Source: a virus (Duplodnaviria; Caudoviricetes). From it: a DNA stretch of 64,000 bases. Below, in pieces: positions 2,884-49,812 of this stretch. The DNA is taken from the IMG/VR virus record IMGVR_UViG_3300032281_000616, positions 128,001 to 192,000 of that record; one strand, written 5' to 3'. Within the stretch, counting starts at the first letter, position 1; each line of letters opens with the position of its first letter. The notes below the pieces were generated by a model. It did no database searches. It had not been told where the DNA came from and saw only the letters and a list, made by a program, of their open reading frames with translations. The translations under genes were made by a program, and so were the position numbers.

Positions 2884-4367
2884 TTGGAAGGAATCATTTG
2901 TTTAGCCTTCTTGAGAACATCCTGCTCTGAGATTTCTCTACCACTTAATAACATCTCAGCCACCCAATCTTGTAATTTGGGTAAATACATACCGATCTGT
3001 TTGGGGTTTGTTTTGAATTGTGGAAACCATTGCATCATTTTATTACCATTAGCATACTGAGCTATTTGTTTTTTCAGAGCATCAGCACCTCCCGGAACTG
3101 TGTTTAGTTTAGCTTCTGCTCTCTCAATCTTATCCATAAACTCTTGTTTATCAAATAGACCGGGACCACGAGAAGCTTCATCACAATATGCCACAGCCTT
3201 AACAGTCTCCCATGAAGGATCATGAATCAATTTTCTGAGAGTCTTTATATTGAGTGTATCTAGATTATGAACCATCATATGTTTAGCTACAGCATCAAGA
3301 ATGTTCTTTTTATCATTCGGTCCTAGTTTAGCGAATCTCATTCTTTTGAAGATTCCCTCAACAATAGGAACACCAGCAGCTTCATGACCATAATATGTAG
3401 AATGTCCATTCTTTTCACCTCTAGTTGTAGCTTTTCCAAAGTCGTGGAAAAGAACAGCTAAGTTAATCACAGGATCACTATAAGGTGAAACTTTTAAGCA
3501 TTCGTGAATGTGACCAAGAACTTTACTCTCCCCTTCTGGATGATATTTCGGATTATGCATCATTCCATCCATCGCATGAAACTCTGGAAGAATATCTTGT
3601 AATATTCCAGCTTCAGTAAGCTTACTTAAAAAGTTTGATAGAGTTCTTCCTGATTTGGCTGCTTTAAACATTTCTTGAGAAATACTCTCCATAGAAATCA
3701 GAGAAGAATCTTGTAACAAGTGCTTCAATTCTTTAGCAGCTTGTAGAGTCTCTGGCTCAATATCAAAGTCCATCTTAGCTGCGAATCTGAAGACACGAAG
3801 CAAACGGGTAGCATCCTCCTTAAACCTCTCTCTAGGATTACCAACTGCACGAATTAATTTATTCTGAAGATCCTGTAAACCACCCTGATAATCTACAATC
3901 CTACCACGATGATCAAGACCAAAACTATTGATAGTAATATCCCTACGTTTGGTATCCGTTTCAAAACTATCAACCTCTACAGAAACATTACTCTGTCTTC
4001 CCATTTCAGTTTGAGAATCTTCCCTAAATTTAGCTAAGTCATAAGCATAGTTGTTATATAGGATAGTATAAACTGGTTGAGAATCATTCTTTGATATATT
4101 ACGCAACTCAAAATGTTGAGACAAATCCTCGAAGGGGATATTAGTTGCCATATCAACATCATCGATCTCGTTACCCATAATAAGGTCACGAGGAACACCA
4201 CCAACAATATAAATCTCTCCAGAAGGAAACAGATCAACAATCTTGTTCATCAGATTCAAGGCTACTCGGAGTTCTTCAGAAGATGAGATAGCCTTATTCC
4301 ATTTCTCTGAAAAGTCATCTAGATTATTATTGACTGATTCGAAGAAGAATTTTTTGAATGGGATCAT
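2838..4367 (-). CDS. cca: CCA-adding tRNA nucleotidyltransferase with HD domain
   Basis: YIVGGVPRD...DDVDMAT, DTKRRDITINS, RFKEDATRLLRVFRFAAK, then HIHE...VLFHDFGK (HD). Confidence 0.92.
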   Translation of the reverse strand: MIPFKKFFFESVNNNLDDFSEKWNKAISSSEELRVALNLMNKIVDLFPSGEIYIVGGVPRDLIMGNEIDDVDMATNIPFEDLSQHFELRNISKNDSQPVYTILYNNYAYDLAKFREDSQTEMGRQSNVSVEVDSFETDTKRRDITINSFGLDHRGRIVDYQGGLQDLQNKLIRAVGNPRERFKEDATRLLRVFRFAAKMDFDIEPETLQAAKELKHLLQDSSLISMESISQEMFKAAKSGRTLSNFLSKLTEAGILQDILPEFHAMDGMMHNPKYHPEGESKVLGHIHECLKVSPYSDPVINLAVLFHDFGKATTRGEKNGHSTYYGHEAAGVPIVEGIFKRMRFAKLGPNDKKNILDAVAKHMMVHNLDTLNIKTLRKLIHDPSWETVKAVAYCDEASRGPGLFDKQEFMDKIERAEAKLNTVPGGADALKKQIAQYANGNKMMQWFPQFKTNPKQIGMYLPKLQDWVAEMLLSGREISEQDVLKKAKQMIPSNHLINPISFFTRSLT

Positions 4368-32176: not shown

Positions 32177-32413
32177 TTAATTTAATTTATAATTGAAAAA
32201 GTTTTCGTCAGTTGATTTAACAACCCTAGATGGATCAAACTCTTCTCCGATAGTGCATTGGAATCCTTCGAAGATATATACAGCAACGTCTCCGTAAAGG
32301 GATTCCATAATTTCTTCAATATTTGAGCATTCGATCCAAGTTTTCTTAGTTAAGCAATGATGATGACTCCCAGAAATCCAACGATCTTCCCAAATCACGG
32401 TGTATTGTTTCAT
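32177..32413 (-). CDS. hypothetical protein
   Basis: Promoter motif at exact spacing. Confidence 0.7.
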   Translation of the reverse strand: MKQYTVIWEDRWISGSHHHCLTKKTWIECSNIEEIMESLYGDVAVYIFEGFQCTIGEEFDPSRVVKSTDENFFNYKLN

Positions 32414-32438
32414 GTCAGTAGTATAGTATAGTGTTTAA

Positions 32439-33239
32439 TCAATAATCTTGGCAAGGATCGTTATTATGTCCGGGAAACAGATCTTCTCCAGCCTGTAGTT
32501 TCTTTGAAATCACATAAGCAATTCCATCTTGGAAGATGTAGTTATCAATATCATTATAGTTAGTTAGATTGAAGTTATCAACCTTATCACAAGCCCACCA
32601 TGAACCATTTTTTTGTTGATCGGTGCATTCAATAGCCCAATTGTGATCAATTCTATAAAGCATTTCATGTCTTTCCACACGACATTTACCTTCTAGGTCC
32701 TTATGAGAGAAGAACTGCTCACAGAACATATTAAGACTATTACGTTCCCAATTCTTTACTCTCCATAGGAAGACATTAGCGACATCATCTTTAGGACATT
32801 GAAATGCACGGGCATAAAATACAGCAGGTGTGGAATCCATATAATCCCACTGATTAAAATGTTCATGATTACTATGATCTTTAAGCAACCAATTTTTATT
32901 AAAGTATGCTGTCATCATTGCAGCCGTAACACTTTCAATCTTATTCTGTCTACCACCAAACCATTGTTGAGTGTCAATAGTAGCATCATCAGTTAATACA
33001 AATGTTACTTCATCACTCTGAGCATACAGAGCTTTACATCCTTGCATTTGTTGTGCTACTTCTTTAGCAGAGTCAAACATACAAGTGATCAATGTTTGAT
33101 CGAATGGTCTTTGACAACCCTTAGTCCATGTATGAAAACTTTTCCCGTCAAGTCTCACAATAATTGGAGTCTTTGGTAGAAAGTAGTGTTCGTAAATACT
33201 TTCGTAATTTTTGCAGCGGTCGCCCAAATTGTCTTTCAT
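32439..33239 (-). CDS. thg1: tRNA(His) guanylyltransferase Thg1-like
   Basis: IVRLDGKSFH, YAQSDEV, WFGGRQNK, ARAF, FLWR, FSHKDLEGK. Confidence 0.9.
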   Translation of the reverse strand: MKDNLGDRCKNYESIYEHYFLPKTPIIVRLDGKSFHTWTKGCQRPFDQTLITCMFDSAKEVAQQMQGCKALYAQSDEVTFVLTDDATIDTQQWFGGRQNKIESVTAAMMTAYFNKNWLLKDHSNHEHFNQWDYMDSTPAVFYARAFQCPKDDVANVFLWRVKNWERNSLNMFCEQFFSHKDLEGKCRVERHEMLYRIDHNWAIECTDQQKNGSWWACDKVDNFNLTNYNDIDNYIFQDGIAYVISKKLQAGEDLFPGHNNDPCQDY

Positions 33240-34364: not shown

Positions 34365-35363
34365 TCACAGATGAACAGTTGTAAGTCCATCAGTAGTTGT
34401 CCAATATTCTCCAAGTTGTTGAAGTGCATTCAATACTTGTTCCTTGGTCGCCCAATTAGGAGAGAAAATATTTTGGATTTGTCGAATAGTTACTTCTGTG
34501 TAACCTTCATCCCTCTTCTTAGTGAGATAATTATCAACCTTTGTTACAAAGGCATCTAATTCCTTAACAAGATCGGGAACAATTGTATTTTCTCCATCCT
34601 CATCAACAACGGGTGCTGTAATTTCTTCTACAAAGTCTGACATAACTTCATATTTACACACACGAACCTTTTGACAATTACAATCAGATGGAACTGATAC
34701 AACATCAGCAGGATTGATCTTAACTACAATTAGTTTAGAGGCAAATCCCCTAGCATAATCAAGAGATCCAGCATGAAGACCGAATGAACAATGCTTTTCA
34801 CGATTATCATCAACATCACGACGACGAACTTCAATAACAGATCCTACTCCATTATAAATTTGTCCATCAGAATTAACATAACCCTGAATAACCTTAGTAT
34901 TCAAATTTCCATGTGACGAAAAATAGTTATAATTGACACCCTTATAGGCAAGGAAGCAACCATCTTCTGTGAGAGGTAGTTCCTTATAGTCTAGGAATTC
35001 TGTCAATTCCTTCACACTCTGAGCACTTGGATTTTGCTCTAGGTTAGCCCAGAACTTCTCAAAGTGTTCCAATGGGAGTCCATCAGCGATGATAGACAAA
35101 ACCTTATCTGAGAAAGCTTTAGGAAGCTTCTCGCCCTTATAGAAGATTTCTTCACCTTGGATATCAAATCCTTCAGTTTCTTCGATAACCTTATCAGCCT
35201 TGACGACCTTATTAAGGATCGCCTCGACCTCTGCTTCTTGCTCATCTTTTGGTAGTTGAAAGACTTTGATAATTTTTGGATATCGTTGATCAGTCTTCTC
35301 AACGCGGATATTCTTTCCGTTAATAAAAAGAATAATTGCTTCTGTGTTAATTGCGTATTTCAT
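34365..35363 (-). CDS. rIIB: rIIB lysis inhibition protein
   Basis: FWANL.QNPS..SV.EL..FL....LP.TEDGCFLAYKGV; CSFGLH.GS..YA; VKINPADVVSVP.D...KVRVCKYEV. Confidence 0.9.
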   Translation of the reverse strand: MKYAINTEAIILFINGKNIRVEKTDQRYPKIIKVFQLPKDEQEAEVEAILNKVVKADKVIEETEGFDIQGEEIFYKGEKLPKAFSDKVLSIIADGLPLEHFEKFWANLEQNPSAQSVKELTEFLDYKELPLTEDGCFLAYKGVNYNYFSSHGNLNTKVIQGYVNSDGQIYNGVGSVIEVRRRDVDDNREKHCSFGLHAGSLDYARGFASKLIVVKINPADVVSVPSDCNCQKVRVCKYEVMSDFVEEITAPVVDEDGENTIVPDLVKELDAFVTKVDNYLTKKRDEGYTEVTIRQIQNIFSPNWATKEQVLNALQQLGEYWTTTDGLTTVHL

Positions 35364-35398
35364 AATCTATGTTTAGTATATCTTAGTGTTTTATAATG

Positions 35399-35771: not shown

Positions 35772-37637
35772 TTATTTTGTTGTAAGGATTTTACGCAGAT
35801 CTTCTCGTGTAATTTTTGTGTTGTATGTTTCAATACTAGACAAAACCCTACCTCGGAAAGAATTTTCCTTCAAAATCTTATTCTTGACCATATTCAATCT
35901 AGTCAACTTTGATGGATTTTTTCCAATGACCTTGATCAGTCTTTGAGATGGATGGATTCTAAACATCGCACTTTTAACACGATATTCGGCATTCTCCATA
36001 TCTCTTTTGGCTTGCTCAATGACATTGAGCTCAGCGCAGCGTTTTGTATATTCTGGTGAGTTAAGCTCAAACCAACCCAGTTCGAGAAGTTGTTCTTTCA
36101 TCTTCTTAGAATTACAAACCCAATAAGGATTATTAACACCACACTCAGAAGTCAATCCAATAACGCGCTGTCTAAGGTATGAGATACTATCAATAGATTT
36201 TTCCCATCCATCTACGATTTCAACACCGTTGAAAGACTTATCAGTTACATGTTCATCCAATTCTTCAGCAGTGAAATTTCTCTTGTGACCATTGAAATAC
36301 ACAACATACCTAACCTCATTAGGATCTTTGGCTAGTTTGGGTAAACCAAGTTTCTTAACGTCTACAAATGTTACATCAGAAACATCCAAGGTATCGGTTG
36401 ATAAAATATCACCTTTATTAAGCATCCAAACAATTTGTGTATTTGGAAACAACCCAGCAATATATTGATCAAGACGCTTCACCCAACCTTTGTATGACTT
36501 GATATCTGGAATCTGATACACCACATACTTACCTGTCGTTTTATTATGACCATACCCAGTGTGAATATAATCTAGACATTTTTGAATTTTATAAGTATCT
36601 GGAAAAGTATTAGAGAATGAGTATCTGAACCACTCACCTTCATAGTATGAATTATGCTTATTTTCTAAAATCGCTTCCCCAAATTTTGGTGTAACAATCT
36701 TGGATCGATCTTCATCACTAAGTTGAACTATGGCATCAGTGATTTCATCCAGAACCTTTTTATTGTTTGGAGTATCTTCAATACTTTCACGAGAAATTGG
36801 CACAGTCAATTTACCGATAGGAACATCCACTACAATCTTACCCAGAGGGTTCACAACCTTGATATCGGATCGCATATTGTAAACAATCCCACCCATACGA
36901 ATGGCTACATAATCAGGAGATGTCCAAAATGTGCTTTGGTATAAGTTGATGGTATAGTCCCCGATATCCTTAGTTAGGAGAGGTTGAATAGGAGTATGTT
37001 CAACATCATATTGATCTGTAAATTTAATATTTGCATTCGGTAGAAAGCGTTCCACGAAAGATGCTGATTCTGTAGAGAAATTGTAGTAGTTTTTGTTTAC
37101 ATCTAGTGATACCTCCAAACCCGATTCTGTTGTCGGTTCTGGATCTGATACACGATAGATTTCTCCTACAGATAAACCATTGTCACCAGCACCGAGAATA
37201 CAAGCGTATTGAGTTTTTAATCCTTCATGATATGAGGTGATGTAGAATGAATCCGAGACAGCAAATGGTGACAATGCACCTACACCAAATCCACCGACTT
37301 GGTTATTATTGTTTCTCTTATCAGATCCACCATACATACCATAAATGGTTCTGATAGACTCCTCACTAAGTCCCTTAGCGAAGTCCCTAGAACTCCACAC
37401 ATATTGACCATTGACATTCTCAAGCTTAACCTCTACAGCTTTGTCGATACCATACTTGATATGTTCATCCTGAGAGTTTGTGATAGTCTCACGGATACAT
37501 GCGAGGGTTTTATTGGAGTAAATCTTATCGCGTAAAAATCCAGCGATCATATCTTCAGCACCCGAAGCTACTCCCATTTTTGAAACGTTCATGTCTTCCG
37601 ATGCTATGGTGGGTGAATTCTTAAAGTTTAATTTCAT
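35772..37637 (-). CDS. rIIA: rIIA lysis inhibition protein (GHKL ATPase N-terminus)
   Basis: IYSNK..ACIRE.ITNS.D.H, RDFAKGLS, YGGSDKR..N.QVGGFGVG..SPFA..DSF; adjacent to rIIB. Confidence 0.9.
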   Translation of the reverse strand: MKLNFKNSPTIASEDMNVSKMGVASGAEDMIAGFLRDKIYSNKTLACIRETITNSQDEHIKYGIDKAVEVKLENVNGQYVWSSRDFAKGLSEESIRTIYGMYGGSDKRNNNNQVGGFGVGALSPFAVSDSFYITSYHEGLKTQYACILGAGDNGLSVGEIYRVSDPEPTTESGLEVSLDVNKNYYNFSTESASFVERFLPNANIKFTDQYDVEHTPIQPLLTKDIGDYTINLYQSTFWTSPDYVAIRMGGIVYNMRSDIKVVNPLGKIVVDVPIGKLTVPISRESIEDTPNNKKVLDEITDAIVQLSDEDRSKIVTPKFGEAILENKHNSYYEGEWFRYSFSNTFPDTYKIQKCLDYIHTGYGHNKTTGKYVVYQIPDIKSYKGWVKRLDQYIAGLFPNTQIVWMLNKGDILSTDTLDVSDVTFVDVKKLGLPKLAKDPNEVRYVVYFNGHKRNFTAEELDEHVTDKSFNGVEIVDGWEKSIDSISYLRQRVIGLTSECGVNNPYWVCNSKKMKEQLLELGWFELNSPEYTKRCAELNVIEQAKRDMENAEYRVKSAMFRIHPSQRLIKVIGKNPSKLTRLNMVKNKILKENSFRGRVLSSIETYNTKITREDLRKILTTK

Positions 37638-37696
37638 ATCAGCAGTGTAGTTTAGTGTTTAATCAAAAAAATTCTTCTTAAGAGATAAATAATAAT

Positions 37697-38677
37697 ATGA
37701 CAAAAGAATGTAGTAAATGTAAAATAGTTAAGGATGTTTCTGAATTCGGTATTTGTAAACTAGTAAAGAGTGGGTTATATCCATCATGTAATCCATGTAG
37801 GAGAAAGTTAGCTAAAGAAGCTACAATATTAAAAAAATTAAAAAAGGAGGAGGAACTCAAACATAATCCACCAGCACCAAAGATAGGTAAAAACTGTTCC
37901 AAATGTAAAGAATTCAAATTATACAGTTTTTTTGTAGTTAATAATTCAGCAAAAGATGGAAAATCTTCTAGATGTAAAGCCTGTAAAAAAAATGAAAGAA
38001 TCGATAATAGAGAATATATAAATAAACAGAATAAAGAATACTACAAAAGGGTTAAACACACAGATCGTTACAGGGAAGCTTATGATGTATATTATAAAAA
38101 AAATTCAACAGCCATCAAAAAAAGAGTGAAGGATCATTATCAAAGAAATAAAGAAACGATGTCTAAAAAGGCGAACGTTAGGAAAAGTAGAAGATATCAT
38201 TCAGATAATAACTTCAATCTTTTGTGTAAAATACGAGCAATGATTATAAGAACAATCAAAGGCAGAAAATGCAAATCTGTTTACTATGTCGGGGTGAATA
38301 CACCAGAAGAGTTTTTAAATATCATGAATTCTAAGTGTAACAATCCGAATTGGATTTCTGATAAGTATCAGATAGATCATATATGGCAAGTTCATTGGTT
38401 CACAGACGCTCTAGAAAAAGACCCAGAGAATGTTTCTAAGATAATACACAACCACAAAAATCTAAGACCGATACCAGCATCAGAAAACATCAATAGGGAC
38501 AAATACGATTATACTAGTTTGTGTATCGAAGATTTTGAAATATATAAACCATACATAAATAAAAACATCCTAATCCAGATATCCGATCACTTCTCCATAT
38601 CACCTGCCCCAGCAGCTACTCCCATCTTAGATACAGACATATCTTCAGATGCAATAGTTGGTGAATTTTTGAATTGA
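37697..38677 (+). CDS. Zn-ribbon repeat HNH homing endonuclease
   Basis: Two CSKC...C..C repeats; YQIDHI...NHKNLRPIPASEN. Confidence 0.8.
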   Translation: MTKECSKCKIVKDVSEFGICKLVKSGLYPSCNPCRRKLAKEATILKKLKKEEELKHNPPAPKIGKNCSKCKEFKLYSFFVVNNSAKDGKSSRCKACKKNERIDNREYINKQNKEYYKRVKHTDRYREAYDVYYKKNSTAIKKRVKDHYQRNKETMSKKANVRKSRRYHSDNNFNLLCKIRAMIIRTIKGRKCKSVYYVGVNTPEEFLNIMNSKCNNPNWISDKYQIDHIWQVHWFTDALEKDPENVSKIIHNHKNLRPIPASENINRDKYDYTSLCIEDFEIYKPYINKNILIQISDHFSISPAPAATPILDTDISSDAIVGEFLN

Positions 38678-38685
38678 AGTTTCAT
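38587..38685 (-). pseudogene. stranded original rIIA 5' end with its own promoter
   Basis: MKLQFKNSPTIASEDMSVSKMGVAAGAGDMEK* versus rIIA MKLNFKNSPTIASEDMNVSKMGVASGAEDMI. Confidence 0.9.
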
Positions 38686-38712
38686 ATTGTGATGTAATTA
38701 TATCTTAGTGTT

Positions 38713-40166
38713 TTAACTATAAAATTTAACGCCCATGTAACCATTTTTCACCATGAAAGATCTAATGATATCCATAGCTTTTCCATAATCCTTTCCCCAC
38801 ATAGGAGGAAAGCATATATTATCAATTTCATCTACCAAATCCTCATGGTAAAAATCATCACTTGTTCCATTAAAATTGATGGCATTAGTCTTGAAGAAAA
38901 TTCGATGACATTCGCTCCATGAAAGACGCCATTCTTTAACAGCGTAATCGAATAGTGTTGTATATTTGAGTCTTTTCATTGTTCGAAATCATCCCAATTA
39001 ATAGAGTCCAGATCAATATCCTCTTCAGGAGGATAAATTGGTTCGTATGAAGTCACTGTAGTAACCTTGGTTACTTTCTTCACTGGTCTTGGTGTATAGG
39101 AATCTTTTTGATAACCCTTACCTTTGTGACAATCTTCTAATAGTCGATTATTTAACCAATTTACAGCATAGTAATCGTTTCCTACTTTATGATATGATGT
39201 GTGCCATTCATTGCCAGAACCATCGTATTCTATGTCAGAGTGATCAATCTCTGGGTGATCTTTCAACCACATATTTAATTCTATTTTATTCATTATATTA
39301 AATCTTTATGTTCTTGAAATAATTTCTCTAGTTCGCTTCTCAGGGGATCATCGATATTCATCTCTTCAGAATGTATATCATAGTATATTGTATAAGTCCA
39401 ATGGTTTTCATCGTATCTATGGACTTCCATATCATCTATCGTAAGGTGATAGATTACTTCTTTTCTAATATTTTTAAGATTCATGACTCAGTATAACATT
39501 TCCGAATAAAGTGTATACCCATCTCCGCTTCCATGATCGGGAAATCTCATTTGTCCATTTTTTTCTGCAATAATATAAGCTTCTTCACGAGAAACCCATT
39601 CTCTTAGTTGAGTTATAAAACCCTGATCAAAATCTCGAAATCTTTCTGATTCCAATCTCTGAGAACGCATTACATCATCCCAATGTCTAGGTCCACATAT
39701 AATTCTACCAGTTTTCTTGTTTTTATTTGCAGCACAAACAATCCAAGGATCGGGTTTAATTAGACCATTTTCAGTCCAGTAATCACTCATTTCCTAAAAA
39801 AAAGATAAAATCGATTCCTTAAAAACATACCATACACCATAAACAGCGTATTTAATTTTTCTTACTACTTTCATATGAAAGTAATATACGCTAGTGTTTA
39901 ATAACTAAGTCTCACAGATTGGCATCCGTTACTAGAGGTGGATTAACAATTGGATAAAATGGTATCCAAATGGGCATCTCTATAGCTTTATCTAAAGGGT
40001 TAGAGTCTCTATTTGTATCTTCGTATGGGGAACATTCTTCGAGTGAATGTTTCTTCGATACGACTTCTTTAGCTGAGTCTATAATATCTTTAGACGAGTA
40101 TATGTCTTCTTTCAAATTAGAAGAAGATAAAAACATTAGTAACCTAAAGATAATTAAACTCTTCAT
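38713..40166 (-). CDS. block of small hypothetical genes (38713..38979, 38976..39293, 39293..39484, 39488..39790, 39912..40166)
   Basis: Abutting ORFs; 39488..39790 has the common phage pattern G.RH.D..QGF...SREEA..IA...GQ. Confidence 0.7.
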
Positions 40167-48788: not shown

Positions 48789-48836
48789 TTATCGCAATTC
48801 TATGGTTTTTGGCCAATCTGGAAATACTGATCCGTT
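48789..48836 (-). pseudogene. stranded original 3' end of the 2H phosphoesterase gene
   Basis: NGSVFPDWPKTIELR* versus functional NSAYPSWPKTIEIR. Confidence 0.8.
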
Positions 48837-49812
48837 ATTCTTTTTTCCAAAGGAAACCTTTGTAATGTTTTTTTGTTCCAGCAAAAACCGCTGATATTGG
48901 AGAAAAATTGAACATATTAAAATATTTTTTAATTTCTGTTGAAGTTTCCCAAACCTTTATCAAGTTCCCTGACATATCATATTGACCAATGTTGCGAAGT
49001 ATCAACTTATCTGGATTGCTCATTTTTTGTCTACTTTCACATATTCTAGTTTTTATATAATCAACTATCTCTCTTTTGGTTTTCTTTTCATATGAAAAGA
49101 AATATCCTTTATATGAAATATTCTTACCCATAGCAACATGAGATATACTACAAATACTTTTAAGATTTAGTGCATCAGCACAACTCCTAGCATCTTTCCA
49201 TATTCCCACAAAACACCCATCCAACATGTATGCGTATACATTTTTCCGCCTATAATCTCCATTTTTTGGAATTATATTGTAGTCTTTTAAAATTTTTAAA
49301 ACTACACTATGACTCAATCCCAATTCCCTCGAAACACCCAAAGCATTTTTGGTTTCTTTATAAAGCTTAAGAACATCGATTTCGTAAGGTTCCCTTTTCT
49401 TTCTTTTTGTTATATTTGTCTTTTCTATGATAGACTTGGAGACTTTATAACCGACATTACTTTCTGCGGTGGGTCTAGAATTGTAACCATTATTACAACT
49501 ATCGTATTTGGTAATATAAAACGTCTCCATCTCTATTATATTCCCACCATCGCAAGAATCTATGATTTCGAATGTAAGATTTTCTCCGCCATACTTATTA
49601 TAAGCATATTGTAATTTTTTCGAATAATGTATTCCCAATTTAAGTAAATCAGCGTGTTTACCCCATCTAGTTCTAATTCCGTAATAACTACCTTTCCGAA
49701 TACTCGCAGAACTTCCTATATAAACTTTATTAGATGTTGAATTAATAAATGTTAATTTATATACGCCTGTAGTAACTGGCCAACTTTTCCTATCTTGTAA
49801 TGTGTATACCAC
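48835..49812 (-). CDS. GIY-YIG homing endonuclease with NUMOD1-like repeats
   Basis: GVYKL..KVYIGSS; repeated VYAY.LDG.FVG.W / GQYD.SG.LIKVW. Confidence 0.88.
   Translation of the reverse strand: MVYTLQDRKSWPVTTGVYKLTFINSTSNKVYIGSSASIRKGSYYGIRTRWGKHADLLKLGIHYSKKLQYAYNKYGGENLTFEIIDSCDGGNIIEMETFYITKYDSCNNGYNSRPTAESNVGYKVSKSIIEKTNITKRKKREPYEIDVLKLYKETKNALGVSRELGLSHSVVLKILKDYNIIPKNGDYRRKNVYAYMLDGCFVGIWKDARSCADALNLKSICSISHVAMGKNISYKGYFFSYEKKTKREIVDYIKTRICESRQKMSNPDKLILRNIGQYDMSGNLIKVWETSTEIKKYFNMFNFSPISAVFAGTKKHYKGFLWKKE

Follow-up and report, generated by a model that had tools for sequence, protein, structure and literature searches.

A doubled rIIA start around an inverted endonuclease gene in a 202-kb phage genome

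This report concerns the start of the rIIA gene in a 202-kb phage genome with direct terminal repeats, from which a stretch of 64,000 nucleotides (IMG/VR record IMGVR_UViG_3300032281_000616, positions 128,001 to 192,000) was analysed as a whole and is called the window below. In it the 5' end of rIIA is found twice, and between the two copies lies a free-standing gene, in the opposite orientation, for a protein that we take to be an HNH-type homing endonuclease. As argued here, the working start was probably imported together with that gene, and the other copy would be what the import left of the resident start.

Layout of the locus

Coordinates are those of the window unless another sequence is named, and relatives are cited by contig handle (L008 and so on). 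The main features, described in the terms that our interpretation gives them, are:

34365-35363, downstream of rIIA: rIIB (PHROG 609, RIIB, E 5e-52)
35772-37637, minus: functional rIIA, 621 residues (PHROG 612, 'RIIA', E 9e-47)
37530-37637, minus: putatively imported 5' tract of rIIA, codons 1 to ~36, delimited by informative sites and a 90-nt tree
37638-37696, no strand: divergent 59-bp spacer, considered part of the cassette, which aligns with the L012 and L003 spacers
37652-37660, minus: start-signal motif AAACACTAA of the working rIIA, 14 nt before its ATG
37685-37691, plus: ATAAATA within the 59-bp spacer, 5 nt before the endonuclease ATG
37697-38677, plus: free-standing endonuclease gene, 326 residues, between the two rIIA copies
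38594-38677, plus: read-through tail of the endonuclease open reading frame (ORF) on relic antisense, homologues ending earlier
38596-38685, minus: relic of the resident rIIA codons 1-30, recognised by homology to the rIIA start
38705-38713, minus: resident rIIA start-signal motif AAACACTAA, ahead of the relic

The rIIA assignment is backed both by the profile match and by adjacency to rIIB, and homologues of the protein bear HATPase_c_3. About 1 kb upstream of the gene, on the same (minus) strand, an ORF of 32 codons (38587-38685) reads as rIIA-like codons 1-30 followed by E, K and a stop, and a tblastn search of the genome finds exactly two copies of the rIIA start. The initial annotation, made from the nucleotide sequence alone, had described the rIIA 5' end as present twice around an inverted HNH gene, and both coordinates and sequences are as it claimed: a gene end is doubled around the endonuclease, one copy working and in frame with the rest of rIIA, the other dead.

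Affinities of the two rIIA starts

The working copy and the relic agree at 26 of 30 residues and at 67 of 90 bases. Many third positions had been said to differ between them, and indeed 17 of the 23 base differences fall there, with 14 codons changed synonymously and four changes non-synonymous. By the Nei-Gojobori method, a codon comparison of the copies gives a proportion of synonymous differences (pS) of 0.82, which is saturated, and a proportion of non-synonymous differences (pN) of 0.105. Saturated synonymous sites together with conserved residues imply that the copies diverged almost wholly as working coding sequence, and such a divergence under use rules out a duplication in place followed by decay. 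We therefore regard the two copies as diverged orthologues and not as the products of a recent in-place duplication.

The nearest public rIIA proteins are 58-67% identical to that of the window, the best full-length homologue reaching 67%. Among them are endonuclease-free relatives, namely L008/L009 (67%), L010 (63%) and L023, in which small co-oriented genes lead straight into rIIA. Had relatives without the endonuclease also carried both copies, terminus replacement would have been refuted; instead, L008, L009, L010 and L023 lack the endonuclease and have one rIIA start each, the gene map of the P0004 contig shows no endonuclease and leaves no space for a second start, and every relative examined has a single rIIA start. 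Other searches added little: the locus had no megablast match among GenBank phages, a scan of IMG/VR with the rIIA protein gave no relative, and a scan of JGI metagenomes a 62%-identical 3' fragment of rIIA as its sole match, while residues 1-260 of rIIA, used as a protein query for fragments on short contigs, returned nothing close. In sequencing run X3 a relic-type start stands behind a different upstream sequence, on read-length contigs that end before codon 23 and cannot reveal an empty site.

The two starts have different nearest relatives. The relic is closest to L008 (77/90 bases, 86%; 28/30 residues, 93%) and the working copy to L012 (74/90 bases, 82%), the contig that bears the closest endonuclease. 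Of the 23 sites that distinguish the copies, 15 link L008 to the relic and 5 to the working copy, and for L012 the split is the reverse, with 15 for the working copy and 5 for the relic (Fisher p 0.004); a maximum-likelihood tree of the 90 bases unites the working copy with L012 at a support of 95/96. Over rIIA codons 40-440, on the other hand, the tree groups the window with endonuclease-free L008, L010 and L023, apart from L012 and L003 (100/100). Gene context agrees with this division. The relic occupies the native site: it follows immediately on the upstream small gene, as the rIIA start does in L008, L010 and L023, and its 19-nt spacer from motif to ATG has 16 of 19 positions in common with that of L023. 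Endonuclease gene, 59-bp spacer and working copy together form a block collinear with L012 and L003, and the 59-bp spacer does not align with endonuclease-free L008. Given the affinity of the relic to endonuclease-free relatives, that of the working copy to L012 and the context of both, the evidence supports the relic as the resident start and the working start as an arrival with the endonuclease gene. The 621-residue rIIA would thus be a mosaic, with codons 1 to ~36 imported and the remainder resident, and what had been proposed as terminus replacement by an endonuclease cassette is borne out by relatives, trees and gene context alike.

The limits of the imported tract can be placed with some precision. 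Informative sites in the working rIIA follow L012 as far as codon 34-36 and L008 from codon 37 onwards, where the conserved DKIY begins; the tract appears to reach about codon 36, and not codon 30. The conserved LRDKIY segment at its end is likely the place of a homologous crossover and a candidate region of cleavage. Between L012 and L003, identity is ~93% in two stretches, the endonuclease 3' half and rIIA from codon 37 on, and ~65% in between; in that intervening stretch L012 is instead 75-87% identical to the window (spacer and endonuclease 5' half), the maximum for the locus. The comparison of L012 with L003 changes at codon 36/37 as well, which suggests that a second conversion tract arose independently, and L012 is best described as an L003-like genome in which the tract from mid-endonuclease to rIIA codon 36, including the second zinc-finger module, was probably swapped for a window-like version.

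At the upstream join, the endonuclease gene ceases to align with the 3' ends of its L012 and L003 counterparts just past an F codon, three codons short of their stop, and the relic antisense starts within a few bases of that point, where a CATAT microhomology is shared. The last codons of the endonuclease gene itself, and its stop, were lost at this junction. Five or six resident rIIA codons are lost as well, because the relic retains codons 1-30 while the imported tract reaches 36, and their loss would match the outcome of a resected break between codons 30 and 37.

The endonuclease and its tie to rIIA

The endonuclease comprises two N-terminal zinc-finger modules of the CxxC...CxxC type (residues 1-40 and 63-100; 37697-38000), a helical linker, an HNH-type C-terminal domain (residues ~174-299) and a non-native tail. 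Residues 300-326 of the ORF are read on the relic antisense, an origin that we assign to the tail because all 14 homologues end in YF, three further residues and a stop (within a few residues), about 24 residues before the window ORF does; in the structure model the predicted local distance difference test score (pLDDT) of the tail is below 50. It had been claimed that some 30 residues derive from rIIA antisense: the antisense reading stands, but the length is 24-27 residues. Two zinc-finger modules are found in the window protein and in its closest homologue, P0122, and one in the other 12 homologues. Families 1035, 2340 and 2255 of PHROG ('endonuclease VII', 'endonuclease' and 'HNH endonuclease') match the zinc-finger part, and nothing in PHROGs matches the C-terminal domain alone.

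That domain owes its label to residues and fold. D227-H228, N255-L256-R257 and N264 are invariant across 15 homologues, with D227-H228, which would supply the catalytic histidine of a His-Me finger nuclease, located on strand 52-55 of the domain model, and in a Flavobacterium phage protein annotated as HNH the DH aligns with 'DHIYPI' and the NL...N with 'NFQPLWAEDN'; the downstream asparagines would correspond to the structural residue and the metal ligand. Modelled alone, the domain has a pLDDT of 91 and two helices inserted between the strands of what may be a beta-beta-alpha-metal fold, and most of the top hits of this model in the AFDB clusters and BFVD bear the name HNH (probability ~1, E 2e-3 to 3e-2, template modelling score 0.45-0.6). 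Among solved structures there are weak matches only (E >= 1, Z <= 3.9 in a wide VIA-align comparison), HNH nucleases dominating the lists; Foldseek against the PDB gave no match at E <= 0.001 for either the full or the domain model, profile searches of PDB sequences returned nothing, and tblastn of the endonuclease found distant Flavobacterium phage genes only. Because of the invariant DH...NL...N residues and the fold matches to predicted structures, we classify the enzyme as HNH-type with moderate confidence.

Homologues of the gene stand head-to-head with rIIA in all eight distinct contexts (the window, L003, L005, L006/L004, L011-14, L015, L016/17 and L018), although across these the rIIA proteins are only ~40-50% identical and the neighbour on the far side differs. 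In endonuclease-bearing relatives it is always the 5' end of the endonuclease gene that lies next to rIIA, never the 3' end; P0122, for instance, which is 72% identical to the window protein, is encoded in L011-L014 immediately upstream of rIIA and in the divergent direction. The occurrence is sporadic, the gene being absent from the nearest rIIA relatives of the window and present in the window and the L contigs just listed. Co-conversion tracts are seen both in the window (L012-like to codon 36) and in L012 (window-like to codon 36). Because of this constant association with rIIA, the absence from nearest relatives and the conversion tracts, we read the pattern as the signature of a free-standing homing endonuclease whose putative target is the rIIA start. 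The codon 36/37 boundary predicts the region in which the enzyme would cut, and it may do so near codon 30, as originally suggested. We consider the family to be an uncharacterised one tied to the rIIA start. The working start differs from endonuclease-free alleles by G28E, L31I and Y34F and at many silent sites, and these replacements, with the synonymous recoding, are candidate changes conferring immunity against the phage's own enzyme.

Both rIIA copies had been credited with a promoter of their own, and the motif AAACACTAA does precede each of them, at 37652-37660 and 38705-38713. In the window it occurs 34 times, always on the minus strand, against 1.1 expected (a further example lies at 35383-35391). 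It stands within 30 nt of an ORF start in 25 of these 34 cases, and because it is exactly 14 nt before the ORF's ATG in 20, we read it as a fixed-distance gene-start signal of this phage, and likely a promoter element with very short leaders. The 35-nt stretch at 37632-37666, which holds the start signal and ATG of rIIA, recurs with four differences at ~32408-32442, ~4.4 kb away, at another gene start, the likeness being limited to the start signal. On the plus strand, ATAAATA followed by ATG after five nucleotides is weakly enriched (4 vs 1 expected), and sigma-70-like sites occur at chance level only. The stranded resident signal at 38705-38713 points antisense through the endonuclease gene towards rIIA, and the stretch from the relic to rIIA showed no terminator-like site; this promoter may dampen expression of the endonuclease or add to the transcription of rIIA.

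Proposed origin, alternatives and comparable cases

We consider it probable that this phage acquired a free-standing HNH-type homing-endonuclease cassette from a different phage lineage, one side being resolved by homologous repair and the other joined illegitimately. The cassette would consist of the endonuclease gene, the 59-bp spacer with its divergent start signals and rIIA codons 1 to ~36. In a mixed infection, the resident rIIA would have been broken somewhere in codons 30-37, and the downstream end would have invaded the donor rIIA at the conserved LRDKIY segment. Repair synthesis would then have copied leftwards through the donor rIIA start, the spacer and the whole endonuclease gene. 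As the left flank of the donor lacked any counterpart in the recipient, the newly made strand would have been joined illegitimately to the other broken end, at resident codon 30, at or near CATAT. As to that flank, a Y16D-like gene abuts the endonuclease in endonuclease-bearing relatives, and its place is taken by three small genes in the window and its nearest kin. Three outcomes can be read directly in the window: a working mosaic rIIA with a foreign, recoded start; a resident promoter with codons 1-30 stranded upstream, the relic stopping two codons later; and an endonuclease gene that has lost its own stop and runs on for ~24 extra codons over relic antisense.

Several observations weigh against this account. 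The donor lineage itself was not found, the nearest candidate, L012, being merely 82% identical over the 90 bases. Endonuclease-free L023 is slightly nearer to the working copy (sites 9:7; 72 vs 70 of 90 bases), which shows the limited resolution of so short a segment. A contig of 839 nt from the public freshwater run X6, ~90% identical to the 5' third of rIIA (36860-37675), departs from the window 38 nt upstream of the rIIA ATG, and a lineage with an imported-type start but without this endonuclease may exist; the contig is too short to decide. The upstream join holds three bases more than a clean CATAT-mediated join predicts. The nuclease domain has no PDB match, and no Pfam HNH family is significant in any of the 15 members, the best hit being HNH_4 at E 0.04 in one member. 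Lastly, the cutting itself is something that we infer: the break may have had a cause other than this enzyme, and the shared codon 36/37 boundary may merely mark the first conserved stretch usable for strand invasion.

The last point leads to the alternative that the endonuclease was a passenger in a one-sided import, with a break or template switch arising from replication or general recombination between co-infecting phages. Phage genomes are generally mosaic, codon 36/37 marks the start of the most conserved stretch and would be favoured by any recombination, and cleavage by the enzyme is presumed only. We nevertheless think this unlikely, since the endonuclease family is found at the rIIA start in eight of eight contexts with otherwise variable neighbours, two independent tracts terminate at the same codon, and at least two further gene-end duplications in the genome and one in L008 each flank a GIY-YIG gene. 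A reversed polarity, in which the working start is resident and the relic is a scrap of donor rIIA from the far side of the endonuclease, could appeal to the integrity of both copies over 30 codons and to the marginal preference of L023 for the working copy. It would require rIIA to have adjoined the 3' end of the endonuclease gene, an arrangement that no endonuclease-bearing relative has, and it is at odds with the collinearity of working copy, spacer and endonuclease with L012, with the place of the relic and its 19-nt spacer directly behind the small gene, as in the endonuclease-free contigs, and with the 90-nt tree; we regard it as quite improbable.

Two copies in the same orientation ~1 kb apart might also suggest a tandem duplication in place, the unused copy drifting afterwards. 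A dead copy would not have retained 26 of 30 residues while its synonymous sites became saturated, and each copy is closest to a different relative; trees and substitution pattern already contradict this explanation, which we hold to be very improbable. Very improbable, too, is an assembly chimera of co-occurring strains with and without the endonuclease, a concern with any genome assembled, as this one was, from a metagenome. An assembler could not have changed paths on the 5-6 bases, at most, that are shared at the join, and a separate Logan assembly of the probable source run recovers the same structure on one 66-kb contig of even depth, spanning 36800-39400 with zero differences. Moreover, the rIIA start, both endonuclease ends and the relic are represented by 97-99% identical pieces in a freshwater run of a different study and year, among them a read-length contig that covers the relic and 10 bases across the join.

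Gene ends are doubled elsewhere too. Further duplications of this kind in the genome had been suspected, and a six-frame self-comparison, in which the rIIA pair is the longest local same-strand duplication, recovers two more gene-end pairs, both around GIY-YIG genes; a third pair is found in L008:

48792-48830 and 49847-49885: C-terminal pair flanking a co-oriented GIY-YIG-like ORF (48835-49812, minus)
Genome 80130-80198 and 80881-80949: C-terminal pair in L021 (G000:C1:79300-81700) around a GIY-YIG/NUMOD-type gene (L021 885-1589)
L008 3199-3498 and 4152-4277: pair flanking a GIY-YIG gene (3395-4129, minus)

In the first of these, the upstream gene ends in ~13 conserved codons (...AYPSWPKTIEIR), of which a stranded copy (...VFPDWPKTIELR) lies past the GIY-YIG-like gene. 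The pair at 80.1-80.9 kb of the genome repeats the last ~20 codons of an upstream gene of 146 residues, with 78% identity over 23 residues, and in L008 the C-terminal 43 residues of the Y16D-like protein are doubled (53% identity) across the GIY-YIG gene. The L008 contig also carries an IS605-type TnpB gene between rIIA and rIIB. A repeat at G000 100413/100851 was rejected as a gene-end duplication, being an internal repeat of a fibre-like protein.

The proposed mechanism belongs to a known type. In T4-like phages, free-standing homing endonucleases (seg, mob) spread by 'intronless homing' with co-conversion of flanks (PMC2988022). Like them, the window gene is intergenic, stand-alone and sporadic among close relatives, has mosaic flanks, and adjoins the same conserved gene in divergent genomes; unlike in T4, where both flanks are homologous and nothing is duplicated, one flank here is illegitimate and lies inside the target, and the gene start is doubled. 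Another parallel is the T4 td intron, for which one-sided homology leads to illegitimate double-strand-break repair with microhomology junctions, a proposed route to ectopic sites (PMC2988022). The single-sided homology, the microhomology junction and the gain of the element at an ectopic or imperfect site are shared with the window, whereas the td case is a laboratory construct with an intron-borne enzyme, and ours a natural genome with a free-standing, inverted gene.

In fungal mitochondria, partial duplicates of gene ends lie beside GIY-YIG or LAGLIDADG ORFs, for example at the C-termini of atp6 and cob in Endoconidiophora resinifera (PMC6279837). There, as here, a gene end is doubled and flanks an endonuclease ORF; those duplications are C-terminal, however, whereas at rIIA the N-terminus and promoter were replaced and the endonuclease is inverted, with a start signal of its own. 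The organelle-type arrangement, in which the endonuclease is fused in frame to the 3' end of the host gene or co-oriented behind it, is not seen at rIIA. The Allomyces atp6 gene described by Paquin and colleagues in 1994 is reportedly a hybrid, its working copy part foreign. In ICP1-like vibriophages, zinc-finger repeat homing endonuclease genes stand at recombination boundaries and vary in module number (Barth et al. 2023, PMC10448857). The nuclease gene marks the boundary of an exchanged tract and repeated DNA-binding zinc-finger modules vary in number in both systems, with different nuclease families and targets; a term search of PMC10448857 for duplications and remnants found no duplication of a target terminus.

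The literature searched yielded no phage example of such a replacement and no rIIA-targeting endonuclease, which is weak evidence for novelty. What appears to be new is the natural replacement of an N-terminus plus promoter by an inverted free-standing endonuclease, and likewise the rIIA-linked endonuclease family. With donor-type and recipient-type relatives both known and the junction resolved to a few bases, the locus would be a clean natural footprint of the one-sided break repair that was proposed from T4 laboratory crosses, and it indicates that the promoter and N-terminus of a gene can be exchanged as a unit with a selfish gene. Since GIY-YIG genes in this genome and in a relative show the pattern too, annotators should expect short dead gene ends and extended endonuclease ORFs beside such genes.

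A broader idea, which we advance tentatively as possible though rather doubtful, is that in this clade of ~200-kb freshwater phages endonucleases of different classes routinely move as 'endonuclease plus recoded gene-end' cassettes. If so, such cassettes would let endonucleases occupy conserved gene ends with no need of an intron or intein, which would give homing genes a third means of holding coding targets, and each event would import a foreign terminus immune to cleavage. In the case of rIIA, the stranded resident promoter may then also provide antisense control of the endonuclease.

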